Assembly (NCBI GenBank): GCA_963802185.1
Contig: CAWDHU010000025.1
Location: 16,997-80,996, forward strand
DNA: 64,000 nt
Direction: 5' to 3'
From: an uncultured Bacteroidales bacterium
GTDB lineage: Bacteria > Bacteroidota > Bacteroidia > Bacteroidales > UBA4417
Numbering within the stretch: position 1 is the stretch's first letter; each line of letters begins with the position of its first letter. The position numbers and the translations under genes are program-made. Shown piece after piece: positions 4,555-16,816 of the stretch. The notes below the pieces were generated by a model. That model searched no databases. It saw only the letters and a list, made by a program, of their open reading frames with translations, and had not been told where the DNA came from.

Positions 4555-4691
4555 AGTCTTAATCTCTATTAAAACTGCTCACAAGGGTTGAGGTTATGAA
4601 ATGTAAAAATAGTCATTAAAGTAGTTTTGATTGAGCACAATGTTGACCCTGTTTCTAATTTATTCTTCTGCCAAAATGCGTTTCTGTCACT

Positions 4692-5363
4692 CTATTTGTT
4701 TGACAAAACAAGAATGTCTTTTGGCTTAAGTATATTTTTCTCGTAGCCATGAAGCATCGAATTGATCATGGCCAGGCCAATCTGTGAGGTAGTTACTACA
4801 GAATCTGGCGCAATGGCTTTAATTCCTTTTACCAGCCACATAAAATAATCGTACATAAACTGGTAACTCTTTGTTCTTGATTTGATTCCCCTTAGCGGGA
4901 TAATTGCACCTGGCCGGAACATGAAAGCCTGTTTAAAACCCAGGTGAAGCAGGTCGTTTTCGGTCTTCCCTTTTATACGTGCCCACATCATACTACCTTT
5001 TTCCGACGAATCAGTACCCTGGCCCGAAACATAATTGAATGTCATTTGCGGATTGATTTCCAAAAGCGTCTTAGCCAGTGAGAGCGTATACTCGTAGGTG
5101 ATTCGTTTATATTGTTCCTCATTCAGGCCGGCGGCGCTTATCCCAAGGCAGAAGAAACAGGCGTCGTAACCTGAAAGCTGTTCCAGGGAACCTGAGAAAC
5201 CGGTAAAATCTTTATGAATCAATTCTTTTAATTTCGGATGTTCAATACCTACCGGATTTCTCCCTATAACCAACACTTCATCAATGGAATTATGGTCTAA
5301 ACATTCCAGTAAAACGCCTTTTCCAACCATTCCGGTTGCACCTGTTATGATTACTTTCTTCAT
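4692..5363 (-). CDS. NAD(P)H-binding Rossmann-fold protein (atypical SDR/epimerase-like)
   Basis: The N-terminus MKKVIITGATGMVGKGV contains the TGxxGxxG dinucleotide-binding motif. 223 aa. Confidence 0.8.
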   Translation of the reverse strand: MKKVIITGATGMVGKGVLLECLDHNSIDEVLVIGRNPVGIEHPKLKELIHKDFTGFSGSLEQLSGYDACFFCLGISAAGLNEEQYKRITYEYTLSLAKTLLEINPQMTFNYVSGQGTDSSEKGSMMWARIKGKTENDLLHLGFKQAFMFRPGAIIPLRGIKSRTKSYQFMYDYFMWLVKGIKAIAPDSVVTTSQIGLAMINSMLHGYEKNILKPKDILVLSNK

Positions 5364-6371: not shown

Positions 6372-6595
6372 TTTTCAGAATTAATTTGTTTATAAATGGG
6401 AGAATAAATATTGCTTGTTTACTGGCAATATACGAAAATAAACTGAATGTTTATCGTTCGGCTCATGAGTTGTGAGGGTTTTATTCATTTGCTTTTCTAT
6501 ACTATGAAAAAATTGAATTCAATCGGACGCCACAACCAGAGAGGTTTTAAGAAGTATGTGGCCTTTATTTTAATATGAAATATGTAAAAAAGCCA

Positions 6596-6763
6596 GAAAA
6601 CGGCTGAGGCTATTAGGAGTGGCTGATGACTTGATACGCTCATGCATGAGACTACTTCGCTAGGTTGCGTGGTACTTAGCTGTCAACCAACACGAACGAT
6701 TGTGCGGGCAACGAACCTTAAATTATATTTCCATACCAGCCATTTGTTATTGCCTTTGTTAGC
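6596..6763 (-). repeat. attC-like structured repeat, distal (terminal) variant of the cassette array
   Basis: The + strand reads GAAAAC-GGCTGAGGCTATTAGGAGTGGCTG ... CAGCCATTTGTTATTGCCT-TT-GTTAGC. The arms pair with G:T wobbles. The outer R box is hybrid (GTTTTC on the minus strand), as expected for the last site of an array. Confidence 0.65.
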
Positions 6764-6781
6764 AAAGGTTTTTATTCAAAT

Positions 6782-7039
6782 TCAGTCATAATGAAATCTG
6801 CATTTCGCAATTAATATTTCATCGTCTTTCACTTTATATATCAATCTATGTTCGCTATCAATTCTGCGCGACCAAAATCCTTTATACTTATATTTCAATG
6901 GCTCTGGTTTTCCTATGCCTGAAAAAGGTGTTCGTGAAATGTCTTTCAGCAAGTCATTTATTTTGGACAACATTTTCTTATCTGTTTTTTGCCAATACAA
7001 ATAATCCTCCCAAGACTCATCTACAAATATGTATCTCAT
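6782..7039 (-). CDS. yoeB: YoeB/Txe-family toxin (mRNA interferase)
   Basis: The 85-aa translation WEDYLYWQKTDKKMLSKINDLLKDISRTPFSGIGKPEPLKYKYKGFWSRRIDSEHRLIYKV...RFHY is diagnostic of YoeB. It overlaps the antitoxin gene by 4 bp. Confidence 0.92.
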   Translation of the reverse strand: MRYIFVDESWEDYLYWQKTDKKMLSKINDLLKDISRTPFSGIGKPEPLKYKYKGFWSRRIDSEHRLIYKVKDDEILIAKCRFHYD

Positions 7040-7290
7040 TGTTCTGAAAGGTCTTTCTGAAATGATGAGCCTGTTCTGAGCTTTTCAATAGCTGAATCTA
7101 ATCTTTTTTCATTTGTCTTGGATGACAATTCGTGATAAGTTGCATTAAGCGAATTATACTCGTCTAATGACATAATGACCACCCCGCTGTCTTTGCCTCT
7201 GTTAATTATCAAGGTTTCAAAGTTTTCAGTCACACGGTCAAGATAGTGCTTAATATCTTTTCTAAAATCGGAAATTGTTGTTGTTAACAT
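7036..7290 (-). CDS. yefM: Phd/YefM-family antitoxin
   Basis: MLTTTISDFRKDIKHYLDRVTENFETLIINRGKDSGVVIMSLDEYNSL has the YefM N-terminal fold signature. ATG 7290 is preferred over the upstream 7335 start of the ORF track. Confidence 0.85.
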   Translation of the reverse strand: MLTTTISDFRKDIKHYLDRVTENFETLIINRGKDSGVVIMSLDEYNSLNATYHELSSKTNEKRLDSAIEKLRTGSSFQKDLSEQ

Positions 7291-7379
7291 GATATTGGTT
7301 ACTTTGTACGTTTCAGAGTACAAATATAAGTACAAATAGTGGAATATTGTTATTTTGGTCAGATTTTTTTAAAACAGTT

Positions 7380-7531
7380 GCTAACGGATGACGCTATGGC
7401 AAGTGCGGGAATAAATTGTTGCTCAACTGTCTGCCAGCACGACCTGTCCCGATTTATCGGGAAATGTATGTAAAGATTTCTAATGTTTCAACGAACACGC
7501 AAACCCGCATTTGCTATAGCGTTTGTTATGG
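7380..7531 (-). repeat. attC-like structured repeat (with a 21-bp hairpin insertion)
   Basis: GCTAAC-GGATG-ACGCTATGGCAAGTGCGGG ... CCCGCATTTGCTATAGCGT-TT-GTTATGG. Relative to the other copies it has an extra CCTGTCCCGATTTATCGGGAAATG segment. Confidence 0.75.
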
Positions 7532-8457: not shown

Positions 8458-8610
8458 TTTCTATTGGAATGATATGTCCCGATTGCGAATGTATATTCAT
8501 TTCCGGTGTCATGATAATTATTTTTGTCAAGGCGAGTATTGTTTGTTAGTCAATGTCCAATGTCAAGATTAACAATCATGTTTTGTCTTGTTGTCTTTTG
8601 TTCTAGCATT

Positions 8611-8744
8611 GCCCATAACGGTTGAGTGTAGCAGCAGTAAGGGATTGCGGACGACAAAACTGTCCACCACCACAAAAGTTTGAGCGTGGTAGAATGCTTG
8701 AAATACCACTGAAACCCTTATTGCTGCTACACTTTGTTATGGGC
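8611..8744 (-). repeat. attC-like structured repeat (sequence-divergent, structure-conserved variant)
   Basis: GCCCATAAC-GGTTGA-GTGTAGCAGCAGTAAGGG ... CCCTTATTGCTGCTACAC-TTT-GTTATGGGC. The R boxes and spacer are the same as in the other copies. The stem sequence is entirely different but still pairs. Confidence 0.75.
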
Positions 8745-8784: not shown

Positions 8785-9567
8785 CTATTCCATCTTGATA
8801 GATTTCAGTATTGTTATTAGGCTTTTAATGTTTTGATTAAAATCACCCTTTGAAAAATCAAAGTATTGAATATTTGAAAAAAGATTAGTGAGGTTTTGCG
8901 GCATTGAATTAATTGTAGAAAAAGGGTCTGTTAAAAAAATAGGAATAATATTATTTCCATAATTCCCTAATTTATGCTTATCAAGAGCATATTCTATTTC
9001 ATTTAACGAAAATTGAGAATTAATGGTCTGGTCACTTATGAGCATCAAGAAGAAACCTTCCTCAATTGTTTCATTTATTGCTGCTCTTAATTGGTCAGCC
9101 CATGGAATAGAAGTGTCTAATGACTGATAGTCTAAAAATACCGTATAATCATTTTGCTCTAATTGTACAGAAATAGCCTGAGCTTGCTTTAAGTCTTTAT
9201 GAGCATATGAAAGGAATATCGTAATTCTTTTTGACAAAGTTTTTATTCCTTCTATTTGACTGTCTACGTCATCATCCAAATTAATAACCTGATAAACTTT
9301 GTCTGGTAATGACCTTATAAAATCAATCTCTGTCTGAACCCATTTTGATTCTTTTGCATTTGTGCTATCACATAGAATAAACCAATTTCTCGCTGCGATT
9401 TCGCGTTTTATCAAGTCGTCAACTTCGGAATTATCACTTAAACATTTTAGGAAAAACAATAATGGTTTATGTCCTTTTAATTCTAATTGGTTTCTAATTT
9501 CACGGACTTTATTCCAATCTTTCAATGAATGTGAAACAAAAATCCATGCACCATTTTCATTATCCAT
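8785..9567 (-). CDS. tandem TIR-domain protein (single-gene cassette)
   Basis: 260 aa with two TIR-like modules. The first is WIFVSHSLKDWNKVREI...SKWVQTEIDF. The second is ITIFLSYAHKDLKQAQAIS...SQFSLNEIEYAL. Each has a conserved Glu at the position of the TIR catalytic Glu. Confidence 0.8.
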   Translation of the reverse strand: MDNENGAWIFVSHSLKDWNKVREIRNQLELKGHKPLLFFLKCLSDNSEVDDLIKREIAARNWFILCDSTNAKESKWVQTEIDFIRSLPDKVYQVINLDDDVDSQIEGIKTLSKRITIFLSYAHKDLKQAQAISVQLEQNDYTVFLDYQSLDTSIPWADQLRAAINETIEEGFFLMLISDQTINSQFSLNEIEYALDKHKLGNYGNNIIPIFLTDPFSTINSMPQNLTNLFSNIQYFDFSKGDFNQNIKSLITILKSIKME

Positions 9568-9637: not shown

Positions 9638-9880
9638 GCCCATAACGGCTGACGCTATGGCAAGTGCGGGAATAAATTGTTGCTCAACTGTCTGCCAGCA
9701 CAAATGTATATAAAGATTTCAAATGTTTCAACGAACACGCAAACCCGCATTTGCTATAGCTACGCTATGGCAAGTGCGGGAATAAATTGTTGCTCAACTG
9801 TCTGCCAGCACAAATGTATGTAAAGATTTCAAACGTTTCAACGAACACGCATACCCGCATTTGCTATAGCGTTTGTTAGC
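9638..9880 (-). repeat. two attC-like repeats fused head-to-tail (inner R boxes missing)
   Basis: Copy 1 (9638-9760) ends at ...TTGCTATAGC. Copy 2 begins immediately with TACGCTATGGCAAGTGCGGG and ends at GTTAGC 9875-9880. Confidence 0.7.
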
Positions 9881-9893
9881 TGTAGTTGTTTCT

Positions 9894-10287: not shown

Positions 10288-10310
10288 TGCCCATAGGCGT
10301 GTGTTAGCTG
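10288..10310 (-). repeat. collapsed attC-like relic (R boxes only)
   Basis: TGCCCATA-GGCGTGT-GTTAGCTG retains only the two terminal boxes seen in the full repeats (CCCATAAC... / ...GTTAGC). The whole stem is missing. Confidence 0.4.
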
Positions 10311-10337
10311 CCGTAGTTTGGTTGTTCAACATTGTAT

Positions 10338-10999
10338 TCAGCTATAAAAACTCCAATTCAAATTTTCTATTGTTTGGTATTCTGCTATTTTTTTTATTAT
10401 TGAGTTTTGATGAGCAGCACCGATAAAAAAAACTGCTTGGTTATACTGATTTTCTTTGCTGTATGAGTATATATTATAAAGCATTTCATTCTCACGCTTA
10501 TCTTGATCTTCGTAGAATGTTTCGTAAATACGATTTAGCTTTTTTTGTGAATGCCTTCTAAATCCAGTAATTTTCTTTCTATATCTTTTTTTTTGTGTAA
10601 TAATTCAGAATGCTTAGCACTATTTAGATAGGCAAATCCTTCTATTTTCATTATCTTTTTTTGTTCTATTTCTATTTCATTGTAAATATCATATTTTTTA
10701 AAAAAGTCAAACACAAAGTTTATTTCTTTAGAAAAAATCGAATTTGTCATAATATCTACAGGAATGTTTTTAATGTTATGGGTCTGTAGATATTTTTTGA
10801 TACATTTGATTTCCAAGACTTCTTCCAATAACTCCTCTAACCCTAAGATATTTTCGTTGTAAACTTTATCAAATAAACTGTTCGGAAGTTCTTCAAAAAT
10901 TATATTTGGATTTATTGAATCAATAATATTGTACAACTCATCAGAATTACATTTTCCAATTTCAGAATGGTGAGTACAAATAAGACTAATGTTTTGCAT
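10338..10999 (-). pseudogene. hypothetical cassette protein, interrupted by a frameshift at a homopolymer
   Basis: The 154-aa ORF (10535-10999) stops at ...EGIHKKS. A second frame, open from 10604 to TGA 10338, continues ...NRIYETFYEDQDKRENEMLYNIYSYSKENQYNQAVFFIGAAHQNSIIKKIAEYQTIENLNWSFYS. T7 (10540-10546) and T9 (10586-10594) runs lie in the overlap. Confidence 0.5.
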
Positions 11000-11461: not shown

Positions 11462-11772
11462 GCCATTTGATTTTAAAGTTTGTTTTTTCTTGTCTTTCTG
11501 CCTTGTTGAAATGTGATTTCAGCCCGCAAACGAATAGATTCACTCGACTCAAAGTCTATTCTATTAGTTTTCCGTCGTTGTCAATCATAGTCGAGAAGCT
11601 AAAAATCCAATTCTTTCCATAGAAAATCTGCGAAGAATTGTCCGCCAAGCTGAATTCCGATAGTCAACAAATTCTGTCGTTACAGATTCGTCTGGTTATG
11701 TCTCGAAAGCTGACAGTTCTTCAAAGATTTTTCAACCGACAAGTCTGTCTTTTTTCTTTTTTTACAATTACA

Positions 11773-11902
11773 GCTAACGGCTGACGCTATGGCAAGTGCG
11801 GGAATAAATTGTTGCTCAACTGTCTGCCAGCACAAATGTATATAAAGATTTCAAATGTTTCAACGAACACGCAAACCCGCATTTGCTATAGCGTTTGTTA
11901 TG
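11773..11902 (-). repeat. attC-like structured repeat
   Basis: 130 bp, GCTAAC-GGCTG-ACGCTATGGCAAGTGCGGG...CCCGCATTTGCTATAGCGT-TT-GTTATG. It is nearly identical to the copies at 12638, 13389 and 14127. Confidence 0.8.
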
Positions 11903-12637
11903 CAGCAGTTTTTCATTTCTGTCAGTTATTCTCAATTATATCTTAGCATAAATTTCAAGAGTTCAAGTCTATCTGATTAATATAATTTTCATGCTGTCAA
12001 TTGTTTCAATTCTCAAATCAATGTCATAAATCAGTCAATTGAAATATCAAGTTACAATTCTTTTAATCATTAACTTCTATCCCATGAAATTCTGCAGCAA
12101 AAATCCAACTGTCCAAGTCTAGTTATTACTTCGATATTTGAATGAAAATTAGCAAGTTCAATAGTAAAAATTGAATATCTTCAGACTGTTCGATAATATC
12201 TTAAAGTAATTCATATCAATTTCTGTCAGATATATCAATTTTGTCTTGTCAATTAATTATACAATCTGACAAGTTCAGAATGCAATATTTATCGAAAACA
12301 AATCTTATTATAGATTCTGTAAGCTATCTATATCAATATCTTAAAATGCAACGCCGTATTTGATATGATCATTTGTCATAAGCAGCATTCTCTAAATCGT
12401 CTTATTCAACTCGAACTTCTCGCTGAAAGCGAATTCAAAACGAACACGACTCTTCGCTCGTTGTTGTGTCTGCATCAAGCAAACACTTCTGTCCGGCCAA
12501 AAAGCTCTCTGCGGAATTCGTCTACATTGTCAAGGTAGGAGAGAAGCCTGGATATTCAGTGAACGAAATAGAATCTTCGAACTTGGTCAAATCTTCGCTA
12601 TTTTGTTCTGTCTGTCTGGGTTTCTATACGCTGCGCT

Positions 12638-12767
12638 GCTAACGGCTGACGCTATGGCAAGTGCGGGAATAAATTGTTGCTCAACTGTCTGCCAGCACAA
12701 ATGTATGTAAAGATTTCAAATGTTTCAACGAACACGCATACCCGCATTTGCTATAGCGTTTGTTAGC
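12638..12767 (-). repeat. attC-like structured repeat
   Basis: 130-bp near-identical copy ending in GTTAGC. Confidence 0.8.
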
Positions 12768-13388
12768 GGTAGTTTTTTATTTTTTCAATTCGTCAATTCT
12801 TCATAATTTGTCTGATTCATAATGTCATGATCAATAATTCTTTCAGTATCATTCGTAAATTAATATATATCTGTCAATAATCATGCTTCAATTTGAATTA
12901 AGTCTAGTCTTATATATCAATATTCATGATAGTTCAAGTTATGTAATAAGTATTCTATATTCTCTTGTCAATTTGTATAAAGTTATCTAAGTATAGTCTC
13001 TTAGTATTATATCATTAGTAAATAATTCAATAATTATTCGTAATATGAATTCTGAATTATTCGTCCAATCTATTGATTTCGAATAGCCATTTAATATCTA
13101 TTATCAATTTCAAATTGAATTCATCATAGACTAATTTGCATGTTAATACTTGTTCAAAATATGCAAGTCATTCTCAATCAGCTATATGAATGTCTGAATT
13201 TTTCTGTCAGTAATTCAAAATTGTCATAATGCATTCTAAAGATAAGTACTTATAATTCAATTCTGAATTTGTCCAATAGTGATTTTCAATTCAATAGTTT
13301 GTCAATGTTCATTGCTTGAACAATATTTAAATGTCAATAATTGTCAATATTAATGTCTGAATTTGTCATGTTTTTTCATAAAATTGCT

Positions 13389-13518
13389 GCTAACGGCTGA
13401 CGCTATGGCAAGTGCGGGAATAAATTGTTGCTCAACTGTCTGCCAGCACAAATGTATGTAAAGATTTCAAATGTTTCAACGAACACGCAAACCCGCATTT
13501 GCTATAGCGTTTGTTAGC
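13389..13518 (-). repeat. attC-like structured repeat
   Basis: 130-bp near-identical copy ending in GTTAGC. Confidence 0.8.
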
Positions 13519-14126
13519 AGCAGTGTTTTTTTCTTTCAATGTAGTTTGCATTCCAAATTATCTTTCAAATGATTCAATCGAATTTCATAATCACGTTTTG
13601 CAATTCTAAATTTGTCAGCTGTAATCTAGTGTTTTGTCATTAATCATACTTGGATCTCATAATAGTCAAATCATTCTATGTCAATAATTACTTGTATTGT
13701 CATAATCTGTAAATTCAAGTTGTCTATAAAATCTGTCTAATGAAGTTATAATTTCATTGTCTAATCAAGTTACTGAATTGTTCATGTCAACATAATTGAG
13801 ATTGCTTTGGTATAAATTCAAGCAAACAATTTCTGTTGTCAAATTCATTCTGAATATGTCTTGATAATATTTGACAATTCCAAGTATTCAATAAATTGTC
13901 TAGTCGAATTATGTTGTATCAATAATTCTGAGATTCTCATAGTCAATACTCATGTTCTGTTAATCTGTTTAATGAATATGCTTTTGTCATGCAATAGTCT
14001 AATGAATTCTAACAATATAAGCAGAAATGTCAATGATTTCCATAATCTAATGTTTATTATGTCATAGTTCAAAATTTCAATAGTATTGATCTGTCAATAT
14101 GATTTTCTGCGGTCTTCAAAATTGCT

Positions 14127-14252
14127 GCTAACGGCTGACGCTATGGCAAGTGCGGGATTAAATTGTTGCTCAACTGTCTGCCAGCACAAATGTATGTAAA
14201 GATTTCAAATGTTTCAACGAACACGCAAACCCGCATTTGCTATAGGTTGTTT
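14127..14252 (-). repeat. attC-like structured repeat, recombinase-proximal copy with a degenerate outer box
   Basis: It has the same left box, stem and loop as the other copies. The right end reads ...GCTATAG-GTTGTTTAA instead of ...GCTATAGCGTTTGTTAGC. Confidence 0.7.
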
Positions 14253-14852
14253 AAAAAGTCGTCTTCATATTTTCGATGTTTGTTTTAACAATTACTGATA
14301 ACTAGTCTATAGCAACAAATATATACCACTTTTCAATACAAGATAAACACTTTCAAAATTATTATTTGCTCTTTTATTACCTGAATTAAATGGTTTCAAT
14401 ATGTTGTGGATTAACTACCCCCTCTCTTTACTTCAAAGAGAGGGGGCAGGGGGTGAGTTTTTTGAGTAATTCATATCTGATCACACAAACTTAATCTATT
14501 TCCTGACTTCATCACTTGGGTGCCCCAGTCGAAATTAAATACTTGAGAATCTCATAAATAACAAAAAATTGCTTTTGTGTTGTCAAATGTTCAATTCACA
14601 TGAAGTTATCACATATTTGGGTGTCCCCGCGACGAAGTCAAGAGATAAGCACACTCAAATTTATTATTTGCTTTTATTTCACATCAAATGAATGGTCTCA
14701 ATATGTTGCAGGAAAACCACCCCCCTCTTTCAAAAAAATAAATACCTTTTCCCTTCTCCTTTCAGGAAAAGGTGCCCAAAGGGCGGATGAGGTTAAGAGG
14801 GGGGCAGCGGTTGAGTTTTTTATGTTTCATATTTAATCTCTGCAAACATCTT

Positions 14853-14930
14853 CTATTTCTCAGGATATTCACCTCCAAGCACCCCCTGCATCAGGTCAAG
14901 CGGACTGATAATTTTCCTGGCTGCTTTTGG
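14853..14930 (-). pseudogene. relic of a tyrosine recombinase 3' end (last ~25 codons plus stop)
   Basis: About 85% identical to 14981-15058. The minus strand would read PKAARKIISPLDLMQGVLGGEYPEK*, against PKAARKVISPLDRMQGMLGSDDPEK* in the intact gene. Confidence 0.7.
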
Positions 14931-14980
14931 GGCAGGGGGTGAGTTTTTTAAGTTTCATATTCAATCTCTATAAACATATT

Positions 14981-16717
14981 CTATTTCTCAGGATCATCAC
15001 TTCCAAGCATCCCCTGCATCCTGTCAAGCGGACTGATAACCTTCCGGGCTGCTTTTGGCAAAATATGAGTGTATACCATCGTCGTTTTAATATTCGTATG
15101 CCCCAGCAATTGCTGTATATACCGGATATCTGTCCCGTTCTCCAGCAGATGCGTGGCAAAACTATGCCTTAGCGTGTGTACACTGGCTTTCTTCTCCAGG
15201 CCTGCTTTTTCAACAGCTTGGCGCATCACATTTTGAACCGTGCCCGTACTTAAAGCTTCACCTTTATACTGCCCGGCAAAAACCCATTCGTCGGGAGGAT
15301 AGATTTTCCGGTAATCTTCGAGGTAAGCTACAATAGAGTAGGGGAGCATCACCACCCGGTCCTTATTGCCTTTGCTTTGCCTCACAAAAATTTTATGTTC
15401 ATCAAAGGAAATATCAACCCATTTCAACCCTACAATTTCACTTCGGCGCAGACCCGCTCCATAACCTAACAATAAAAGCAACTTATGCTTCGGATTTACA
15501 ACCTGGCTGAAAATACGCGAACACTCATCAAATGTAAGTACCACGGGTATTTTGTCCTCATCCCTGGGACGCGGAAGCTTGATTTCAAAACTGTCGCGAT
15601 GCAGCACCGTGCGGAAATAAAACTGTAACGAATTAATCACCATATTAACACTCGATACCGAAAGACCTTGTTCAACCTTCATGGCCAGGTGCCGCACAAT
15701 CTGTCTTTCAGTTAACGAGTCAGGACTCTGATATTCGTTAAAACGCAAAAATAAATTGAAAGCACTTACATAATTCCTGATCGAACTGCTACTGTAATTC
15801 ATAGCTGTCATATAGTCGATCATGGCAAGGGTGTAGGTGTGAACCATTACAGGAACCTGCTTCAGCAAGGCTTCCCGCATCCCTTTAAGTTGTGTGGCTT
15901 TTTTATTCAGGGCTTTGGACTTACGCAGATACCCTTGTGGCAAATTGCTCTGAACACGTATATTGAGTTTGTTGGCAAGTTCCTGCAGGTTTTCGAAAAT
16001 CACCGGCGTAGCATTCAGCACATAAGCTTCGAGCGCCGGGCTGTACCTGCTCCCTTGCCAGCGCCTCACCTCTTCCAGCAAAAACGGCACTTTCGGGCAA
16101 CGCAATACCATCCAACGCTTGTCGGCAGCATACGCATCCAGTTCAATAACGGTGTTTTCGTTAACAATAATTTCGGCAGCATCAAAGTAATTTTCCGGAA
16201 ACAGAACACCCGAATCCAGCAGCGCTTCAACTTTGATTTTCGTATTTACATGCCTGAAAACAAAGAAAGCCTTATGCTCCTTATTCCAGAACACCCCTTT
16301 AATATCCATCAACTTGCGCGAGAGATCTTCTTTGTATGGAACCTGCAGTATCCAATACTTTCCCACGCTTCCTTTGTAAACAATTTTGGCCGCAAATTCA
16401 GGGTCCGGGCCCTTATGTTCAACCGGCAAAGCAGGTTGAAGTTCGCTGATTGCCTCAGCTATGTGAACAATTTCATGCTGTATTACAGCAGGTTCAGGTG
16501 GCGGCTGATTGTTTTCGTCTTTCAGTATTTCAACTTCCCCAAAGGTAAGCAATATTCGCTCATAATTCACCTTGTTGTACAATAAATACCAACAAGTATG
16601 GGTTTGACTCCATCGTGCGTCAAGGCTCCTGGCTTTTTGCTTCAGCTCATTATCAAATCCAAAATATAACGCAATCTGGTAATCACCCCTGTGATAAAAC
16701 TTCCTGATTTGTATCAT
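14981..16717 (-). CDS. tyrosine site-specific recombinase (Xer-like catalytic domain with a ~300-aa N-terminal extension)
   Basis: Catalytic signature: GAGLRRSE (Arg), KGNKDR (Lys), HTLRHSFATHLL (His-x-x-Arg), LLGHTNIKTTMVYTHI (His...Tyr). ATG 16717 (MIQIRKFYHRGD) is preferred to the 16774 start. It is co-oriented with the cassette ORFs. Confidence 0.88.
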   Translation of the reverse strand: MIQIRKFYHRGDYQIALYFGFDNELKQKARSLDARWSQTHTCWYLLYNKVNYERILLTFGEVEILKDENNQPPPEPAVIQHEIVHIAEAISELQPALPVEHKGPDPEFAAKIVYKGSVGKYWILQVPYKEDLSRKLMDIKGVFWNKEHKAFFVFRHVNTKIKVEALLDSGVLFPENYFDAAEIIVNENTVIELDAYAADKRWMVLRCPKVPFLLEEVRRWQGSRYSPALEAYVLNATPVIFENLQELANKLNIRVQSNLPQGYLRKSKALNKKATQLKGMREALLKQVPVMVHTYTLAMIDYMTAMNYSSSSIRNYVSAFNLFLRFNEYQSPDSLTERQIVRHLAMKVEQGLSVSSVNMVINSLQFYFRTVLHRDSFEIKLPRPRDEDKIPVVLTFDECSRIFSQVVNPKHKLLLLLGYGAGLRRSEIVGLKWVDISFDEHKIFVRQSKGNKDRVVMLPYSIVAYLEDYRKIYPPDEWVFAGQYKGEALSTGTVQNVMRQAVEKAGLEKKASVHTLRHSFATHLLENGTDIRYIQQLLGHTNIKTTMVYTHILPKAARKVISPLDRMQGMLGSDDPEK

Positions 16718-16816
16718 AATAATAACGTTTACAGGATAAATTTCAAAAACTGATATTGAGATAATCGCAGTCAAATAAATAGCAATACCAAAGATATAAA
16801 ATAAAATTGAATTTTA

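Follow-up and report, generated by a model that had tools for sequence, protein, structure and literature searches.

ORF-less Intervals in a Bacteroidales Integron

The DNA analyzed here is a stretch of 64,000 nt (the window) from contig CAWDHU010000025.1 of an uncultured Bacteroidales bacterium (assembly GCA_963802185.1). Its part from ~6.6 to 16.8 kb is, by its sequence, a chromosomal integron of the Bacteroidales type with an inverted integrase. Three intervals of its cassette array, 11903–12637, 12768–13388, and 13519–14126, lie between copies of the recombination site attC and are considered in this study. The attC repeats are ~130 nt long and, when aligned, ~95–100% identical across ~125 nt, and they carry a 31-mer, GCTAACGGCTGACGCTATGGCAAGTGCGGGA, which is found in six near-identical copies (at 7380, 9641, 11773, 12638, 13389, and 14127) where 0 are expected. 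Interval 13519–14126 is the cargo of cassette 1, which has an intact attC at 13389–13518, interval 12768–13388 is the cargo of cassette 2, with an intact attC at 12638–12767, and interval 11903–12637 (interval 3) is a composite unit closed by an intact attC at 11773–11902. These attC sites are given on the + strand, which is the better-folding (bottom) strand, and the cargos have their sense on the - strand. The initial annotation had described these units as lying between near-identical attC-like sites, without open reading frames (ORFs) and with their sense on the - strand, and this structural reading was right. There is no ORF of at least 60 aa in any of the six frames of 11462–13860, and the sole later one (13861–14067, + strand, 68 aa) has no Pfam match.

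The three intervals are AT-rich (GC content of 24–27%) and strand-skewed, and GG is nearly gone from their + strand, as had been reported. The GG counts are 0, 1, and 3 and the CC counts 5, 3, and 3 in 11903–12637, 12768–13388, and 13519–14126, respectively, and the cargo of cassette 1 (27% GC) has 20 GTC on the + strand. The further statement that G is almost always followed by T was too strong, since the base next to G on the + strand is T in 56%, A in 27%, C in 16%, and G in 2% of the cases. The base preceding C on this strand is T in 74%. Among 174 attC-adjacent segments of 450 nt with the same attC family, taken from >100 genomes, the three intervals have the lowest observed/expected ratio of GG+CC (0.16–0.30 vs. 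0.99 ± 0.24), and their GTC enrichment is among the highest (3.5–4.6 vs. a mean of 1.7).

A Wrecked Toxin–Antitoxin Cassette

The cargo of cassette 2 is homologous to intact cassettes that encode a ParE-family toxin and its antitoxin. A blastn search with 12768–13388 against the loci with the same attC gave three hits, all to one gene, in loci L030, L081, and L064, and the score against L030 was 68.9 bits compared with a maximum of 48.2 bits for 100 dinucleotide shuffles. This gene codes for a 100-aa ParE-family toxin (Pfam ParE_toxin) and has an overlapping gene for a 78-aa antitoxin upstream, the whole cassette being 600 nt long. Cassette 2 aligns with the intact ParE/antitoxin cassette from end to end, and it is colinear with it, in the same orientation and at the same distance from attC (alignment A1; global z = 17). 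In a frameshift-aware protein–DNA alignment the toxin scores 85 (shuffled maximum 54) and the antitoxin 58 (shuffled maximum 49), at an identity of ~40%; in each gene the frame changes several times and is interrupted by stops. When 11,405 ORF segments were screened by tblastn, the ParE toxin took the first, second, and third ranks, above the reversed-sequence decoys, and a DNA hidden Markov model (HMM) of the family, built from 22 members, scored cassette 2 at 18.7 bits and shuffles at 0. Judged from this homology, cassette 2 descends from a ParE-toxin/antitoxin cassette of which other Bacteroidota arrays have intact versions, an origin which the initial annotation overlooked, and it is a pseudogene because both frames carry frameshifts and in-frame stops.

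Altogether 55 members of the ParE/antitoxin family were collected. Cassette 2 is nearest to the tight L264/L030 clade, with a p-distance of ~0.47–0.52 compared with 0.04–0.12 inside the clade, and its branch is too long to be placed in the family tree. Relative to the toxin–antitoxin (TA) ancestor, the GC content fell from 31 to 24% and GG+CC from ~31 to 3–4, and there are now 37 TGA instead of 15. The substitutions are of several kinds, with 32 changes of G to A, 21 of G to T, 24 of C to T, and 22 of C to A.

Ancestors of cassette 1 and of 11903–12296 were sought by blastn, tblastx, tblastn (with reversed-sequence decoys), and the TA-family HMM, and nothing scored above the controls. Copies of the AT-rich cargos elsewhere were looked for in genome and metagenome loci with blastn, in metagenomes with an exact 24-mer (0 hits), and in plasmids and phages, and none was found in this small searchable sample.

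Recurring Words in the Cargo

The recurrence of TGTCAAT (ATTGACA on the sense strand), to which the initial annotation had drawn attention, was borne out by counting. The word starts at 11995, 12247, 12872, 12966, 13300, 13332, 13342, 13679, 14028, and 14092, the five positions in cassette 2 having been listed before, so that 10 of the 17 copies of the whole window fall in the three intervals. Dinucleotide shuffles give an expectation of 1.67 for TGTCAAT (z = 6.4), and of 8.7 for TGTCA (TGACA on the sense strand), which was observed 25 times. On the - strand there are 51 GAC and 4 GTC, TGA is over-represented three-fold on the sense strand, and the sense-strand vocabulary consists of words such as TGACA, ATTGA, and AGACA.

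The enrichment survives dinucleotide shuffles but vanishes under a null that preserves tetranucleotides. Expectations from an order-3 Markov model are 11.7 for TTGACA (12 observed), 7.3 for ATTGACA (10 observed), and 21.6 for TGACA (25 observed), and the numbers of approximate 12-, 14-, and 16-mer repeats also agree with this model. The flanks of the 51 GAC cores contain at most 0.26 bit per position, and there is no information beyond a core of 4–5 nt. The word excess being gone under the tetranucleotide-preserving null, there is therefore no motif longer than 4–5 nt. The k-mer log-odds of the intervals are correlated with those of 183 intact cassettes on the sense strand (r ~0.5) and not on the antisense strand (r ~0), and GAC is the most enriched sense-strand trinucleotide in both. 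Because of these Markov-level counts and the correlation with intact cassettes, the vocabulary is an exaggerated form of ordinary sense-strand composition and not a set of sites. A short-range bias in composition, at the level of tri- and tetranucleotides, produces the recurring words, which are neither a code nor a binding-site array.

Tests for Coding, RNA, Promoter, and Repeat Functions

Alternative genetic codes do not restore reading frames in the intervals. With TGA, TAG, or TAA read as sense, or with table 25, there is still no cassette-length frame, and the genes adjoining the intervals use the standard code. Stop density on the sense strand is ~10% in all frames of the intervals, and a 3-nt periodicity is absent from them and present in the adjoining genes.

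The candidate roles proposed in the initial annotation for the AT-rich DNA (non-coding RNA, arrays of protein-binding sites, and promoter cassettes) found no support. The minimum free energy of folding, calculated for the sense strand of each part, had z values of -0.13, -0.23, -0.22, and -0.37 against shuffles, which speaks against a structured RNA, and Rfam gave no match better than E = 7. Arrays of the iteron, centromere, or decoy kind were not supported, since no repeated motif of ~8 nt or more with conserved flanks or regular spacing was found; 10.5-nt periodicity, regular spacing, and tandem or hidden periodic repeats were likewise absent from the intervals. The promoter motif of Bacteroidota, TAnnTTTG, is not enriched (0–1 found vs. 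1.2–1.8 expected). Matches to sigma-70-like promoters, predicted in silico, number 30 compared with 18.5 ± 3.8 expected, and the excess of the sigma-70-like TTGACA is part of the general compositional bias. Paralogy of the three cassettes, which had been suggested for testing by pairwise alignment, was not detectable, with local alignment z values of 1–2 and global z values of 3.6–4.9 that are explained by shared k-mers.

A Conserved Mini-cassette within Interval 3

The interval 11903–12637 had been taken for one cassette. It is made up of an ORF-less mini-cassette, a decayed attC, and further decayed DNA, and is thus two cassettes joined through attC decay. The mini-cassette (12388–12637, - strand) is ~250 nt long, has 44% GC, and is a unit separate from the AT-rich DNA after it. 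It is 71–79% identical to elements in five metagenome contigs (L154:212–464, L185:146–399, L235:1359–1615, L214:1651–1907, and L147:1302–1557), and a further genome has it at L322:~4575–4815, where no other cassette stands between it and attI. It also occurs by itself, in L154 and L185, as a full cassette of ~255 nt that is flanked by an attC on either side, with gaps of 2–3 nt. The family has the invariant blocks ACAAAATAGCGAAGATTTGACC and AGCGAAGAG.CGTG..CGTTTTGAATTC...TTCAGCGAG, and no conserved ORF or covarying structure was found in it, the positive covariation term counting against a shared fold. With invariant blocks but neither an ORF nor a covarying structure, it is therefore a conserved non-coding mini-cassette. 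In Bacteroidota integrons it may serve as a regulatory or promoter cassette, a role for which 12388–12637 is the only candidate part of the intervals. Homologous ORF-less cassettes exist in six other loci for the mini-cassette, and none was found for the AT-rich cargos in the small searchable sample.

A 20-mer of the mini-cassette, AAAATAGCGAAGATTTGACC, also matches contigs of Chloroflexota (Ktedonobacteraceae and Chloroflexia; L319, L321, L323, and L324), possibly by chance, and the same may be true for its match in L320, which falls inside a coding region.

The mini-cassette is followed on the - strand by the decayed 5′ part of its own attC (12297–12387). The local alignment of this part to attC scores 42.5 compared with 24.9 ± 4.0 for dinucleotide shuffles, of which 1 of 500 attains this score, and its beginning coincides exactly with the attC start in L154 and L185. 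On the - strand, 11903–12296 is taken up by the remainder of the decayed attC and by the decayed cargo of a further cassette (27% GC, GG 0, and CC 4). As the attC inside interval 3 is decayed, decay has not been confined to cargo.

Downstream of interval 3 and of its attC lies a non-coding leader of 311 nt (11462–11772, - strand, 36% GC), upstream of the 134-aa gene of the next cassette. Its + strand has 1 GG where ~8 are expected and a 3.2-fold excess of GTC, and CC is normal. No homologue of this leader was found, and it may be a less decayed remnant that represents an earlier stage of decay. The initial annotation held that two GC-richer stretches share the vocabulary of the intervals. For the leader this is correct to a moderate extent, in GTC and in the loss of GG from the + strand, while 12400–12637 belongs to the different, conserved element.

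Integrase, attI, and attC Sites

An integron-integrase-like tyrosine recombinase is encoded at 14981–16774 on the - strand (Pfam Phage_integrase, 1e-42, and SAM_4), with the ATG at 16717 as its likely start. Its top NCBIfam match is TIGR02249, integron integrase, with 228.7 bits, which is under the cut-off of 265. The protein is extended at its N terminus by ~300 aa, which is unusual, and segments are repeated within this extension. Its closest relatives, which are full-length, are found in four Bacteroidales metagenome-assembled genomes (80–85% identity), and in Flavobacterium chuncheonense the protein is conserved at 42% (loci L120–L125 altogether). The core of attI, AAAAGTGGTATATATTTGTTGCTATAGACTAG/TT, is at 14300–14334 on the - strand (read from 14334 to 14300), with the crossover between 14302 and 14301. 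It is a 33-nt site kept in six integrons (the window, L120–L123, and L322), and divergence starts directly after G/TT (alignment A6). The cassette junctions are at G/TT and attI adjoins intI, as in integrons generally. The first cassette after attI, ‘cassette 0’ (14132–14301, - strand), is minimal, with a cargo of ~45 nt and an attC at 14127–14256 that has a variant left end.

The gap between the integrase stop and attI (14340–15060 in the window) amounts to ~650 nt, compared with only 30–45 nt in L122 and L123. It contains a second copy of the integrase 3′ end (14854–14930), three copies of GGGGCAGGGGGTGAGTTTTTT, and long G/C hairpins. These features look like insertions of small repeat elements, which could insulate the array from read-through.

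All attC copies have the ends GCTAAC...GTTAGC (or GTTATG), in agreement with the inverse core RYYYAAC and the core GTTRRRY. The + strand is predicted to fold with -27.4 kcal/mol (z = -2.9) and the - strand with -19.4 kcal/mol (z = -0.3). The + strand folds better because two positions are G.T on it and A.C on the - strand, and in the predicted fold the strands further differ by a 5/2-nt internal loop. The bottom strand of attC has an R′ box with AAC followed by G (Bouvier et al., PMC2727003), and the + strand reads GCTAAC-G in this way. In the predicted 20-bp L stem there is no bulged (extrahelical) base, as far as structure prediction goes, although the folded bottom strand of an integron attC would be expected to have such bases on its R″–L″ arm. 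Because the + strand is the better-folding bottom strand with AAC-G, the - strand is the sense strand of the cassettes. The orientation of the cassette genes, of the integrase, and of attI shows the same, and so does the k-mer bias.

The sequence of attC itself, and not only its structure, is nearly invariant in the loci sampled (L001–L263), with an attC 21-mer exact in >240 loci from many Bacteroidota families, Chlorobiaceae bins, and metagenomes. Some sites in the array differ from this pattern. The attC at 7380 (7380–7531) has a 21-nt insertion, GACCTGTCCCGATTTATCGGG, in its loop, two attCs (9641–9760 and 9761–9882) are joined head to tail without cargo, and more divergent attC-like sites are found at ~6594–6776, 8601–8741, and near 10297–10319.

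The cassette genes are all on the - strand, and the integrase shares this orientation. Among their products are YefM/YoeB, a TIR protein, a DUF4405 protein, and several unknowns. The YefM/YoeB toxin–antitoxin cassette of the array is intact (6782–7335), and the TIR-domain cassette (TIR_2, ThsB-like) is at 8785–9567. Proteins identical to those of neighboring cassettes also occur in the sequencing runs ERR12035938 and ERR15459710.

Origin of the AT-rich Cargo

The reading given preference here, and held to be somewhat more probable than its alternatives taken together, is that the AT-rich cargos at 13519–14126, 12768–13388, and 11903–12387 are the remains of dead protein-coding cassettes, all on the - strand, which have drifted under a context-dependent, strand-asymmetric pressure. 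For cassette 2 this history can be followed from an intact relative, and cassette 1 and 11903–12296 presumably share it. Once the coding constraint was lost, the DNA would have drifted under an AT-biased mutation pressure such that, on the sense strand, G was kept or arose almost only before A and C almost only after A, and GG and CC would have been lost on the way. The flanking attCs would have been kept by selection for recombination or by conversion among the copies. If the intervals are fossil cassettes, their present-day vocabulary would have no sequence-specific function. The bias of the decayed cargo has the same direction as the sense-strand bias of the intact cassettes in the pool and is stronger.

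Several observations weigh against this explanation. Simple, context-free AT-biased decay fails as a full account, since a simulation that starts from the TA ancestor and applies the observed substitution matrix leaves 17.7 ± 4.4 GG+CC (3 observed) and gives 12 ± 3 TGA (37 observed) and 0.5 TGACA (9 observed). Only 4 of the 19 GAC and 8 of the 37 TGA in cassette 2 stand at ancestral positions, and since most are at non-ancestral ones, these words are being created and not just kept. In the reliably aligned blocks, all 17 of the 17 new G precede A. The GG+CC ratio is normal (1.07) in an intact gene that is equally AT-rich (10535–10999, 25% GC), non-coding DNA elsewhere in the array shows no loss of GG and CC, and none of the other ~890 AT-rich windows of related loci reaches such a loss. 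Cassette 2 has kept its length (621 vs. 600 nt) despite a divergence of ~40%, and its attCs are near the family consensus. The decayed units adjoin attI, next to which the newest cassettes are expected. Finally, the ancestors of cassette 1 and 11903–12296 did not come up in the sequence searches that were run against controls. A single deaminase or simple oxidation of guanine was rejected as the source of the bias, since the sparing of TC on the + strand and of AC on the - strand is inconsistent with either.

Among the alternatives, a function of the cassettes as non-coding DNA that depends on bulk properties and not on a specific motif is unlikely. Cargo that is AT-rich, free of GG and CC, and poor in structure might ease strand opening and the extrusion of the attC hairpin, might provide downstream cassettes with a spacer or a transcriptional element, or might form an efficient ‘cargo-less’ unit selected for mobility. 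Such a role would fit the preserved cassette length and attCs, a place beside attI that is consistent with recent insertion or shuffling, the extreme composition among the 174 sister cassettes, and the surplus of sigma-70-like matches (30 vs. 18.5 ± 3.8), and promoter-active ORF-less cassettes are known from integrons of the Treponema type and of Vibrio (PMC6557892; PMC11014356). It is opposed by the lack of any copy of the cargo in the small sample searched (genome and metagenome loci, the metagenome 24-mer scan, plasmids, and phages), by Bacteroidota promoter motifs that are not enriched and folding energies that equal those of shuffles, and by the descent from a TA cassette, which speaks against an original non-coding role. 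Accelerated strand-specific mutation is quite unlikely. It supposes that the cargo is damaged or edited while single-stranded (while being excised, on the lagging strand of replication, or when heavily transcribed from the integron promoter) and the attC hairpin is protected, so that the cargo would erode much faster than attC and with a characteristic context signature. The very long branch of cassette 2 (p-distance of 0.47–0.52) beside a clade differing by 0.04–0.12, flanking attCs near the consensus, an odd composition that begins and ends at attC boundaries, a strand-asymmetric and context-specific signature, and the far better predicted folding of the + strand of attC (-27.4 vs. -19.4 kcal/mol) all speak in its favor. 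However, one attC within interval 3 has decayed too, the spared contexts suit neither simple oxidation nor a single deaminase, cassette 2 has a mixed substitution spectrum, its unplaceable branch point leaves the rate increase unproven, and no gene for a deaminase or an error-prone polymerase was seen nearby, although no search was aimed at them. The same low probability is given to a broader proposal, in which a fast strand- and context-specific process rewrites the cargo, purging GG and CC and making GA, AC, and TGA words, and the attCs stay functional. It might act through damage or editing of single-stranded cargo while attC is a hairpin, or through selection that makes dead cassettes into cargo-less, mobile ‘selfish’ cassettes piling up at attI.

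Arrays of binding sites for a protein that reads (T/A)GAC(A/T) or ATTGACA in one orientation, to serve as a decoy, a partition-like, or a silencing platform, are very improbable. The asymmetry of 51 GAC to 4 GTC on the - strand, the 25 TGACA against 8.7 expected, the concentration of 10 of the 17 TGTCAAT copies of the window, and the fact that most copies were newly made relative to the TA ancestor could suggest such sites, but there is no information past the core of 4–5 nt, the spacing is irregular, the tetranucleotide composition accounts for the counts, in intact coding cassettes, too, GAC is the sense-strand trinucleotide with the highest enrichment, and the cassettes encode no candidate binding protein. 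Genes for non-coding RNA, or genes written in an alternative genetic code, come near to refutation. The strong strand asymmetry and the three-fold over-representation of TGA on the sense strand might be taken as signs of them; the frames of toxin and antitoxin are each frameshifted, however, reading TGA, TAG, or TAA as sense gives no cassette-length frame, the genes alongside use the standard code, the minimum free energy z values are near 0, and Rfam has no match.

Relation to Known Cassettes and Pseudogenes

A sizeable part of integron arrays consists of ORF-less cassettes, and this part is poorly understood. In the present case a specific coding ancestor could be identified for one such cassette, meaning that at least some ‘gene-less’ cassettes are fossils and not regulatory devices. 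The same DNA illustrates that a striking enrichment of words can be purely short-range composition, and it offers a rare view of cassette DNA after coding constraint ends. Should the context signature stem from a true process of mutation or selection acting on cargo, this would be relevant to the maintenance and mobilization of cassettes.

The arrangement of the window, with an integrase oriented as its cassettes, is like that of the ‘inverted integron-integrase group’, which is known from other integrons (PMC4889954). ORF-less cassettes, some of them promoter-active, have been described in the oral integrons of Treponema (PMC6557892) and in the superintegrons of Vibrionaceae (PMC11014356), and like these the intervals of the window are cassette-sized, bounded by attC, free of ORFs, and part of a chromosomal array. 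The mini-cassette at 12388–12637 is the best fit to this class, as it recurs standalone and, in L322, comes first after attI. The AT-rich cargos, in contrast, have no homologous ORF-less copies among the sequences searched, one of them is a degraded coding cassette, and no promoter motif of the host type is enriched in them.

Cassette 2 resembles type II TA cassettes of the ParE/RelE superfamily with an upstream antitoxin in its colinearity, orientation, distance to attC, and nearly equal length, and it differs from them in that both of its reading frames are destroyed. The loss of frames, the build-up of stops, and the fall in GC in the intervals are as in bacterial pseudogenes that decay under AT-biased mutation. 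The intervals depart from ordinary pseudogene decay in that they have not shrunk on balance, in their extreme dinucleotide context signature with its strand asymmetry, in the gain of GAC and TGA words, and in a divergence far above that of the sister lineages. Since ORF-less and pseudogenized cassettes are already known, the intervals of the window are an unusually extreme case of a known phenomenon.

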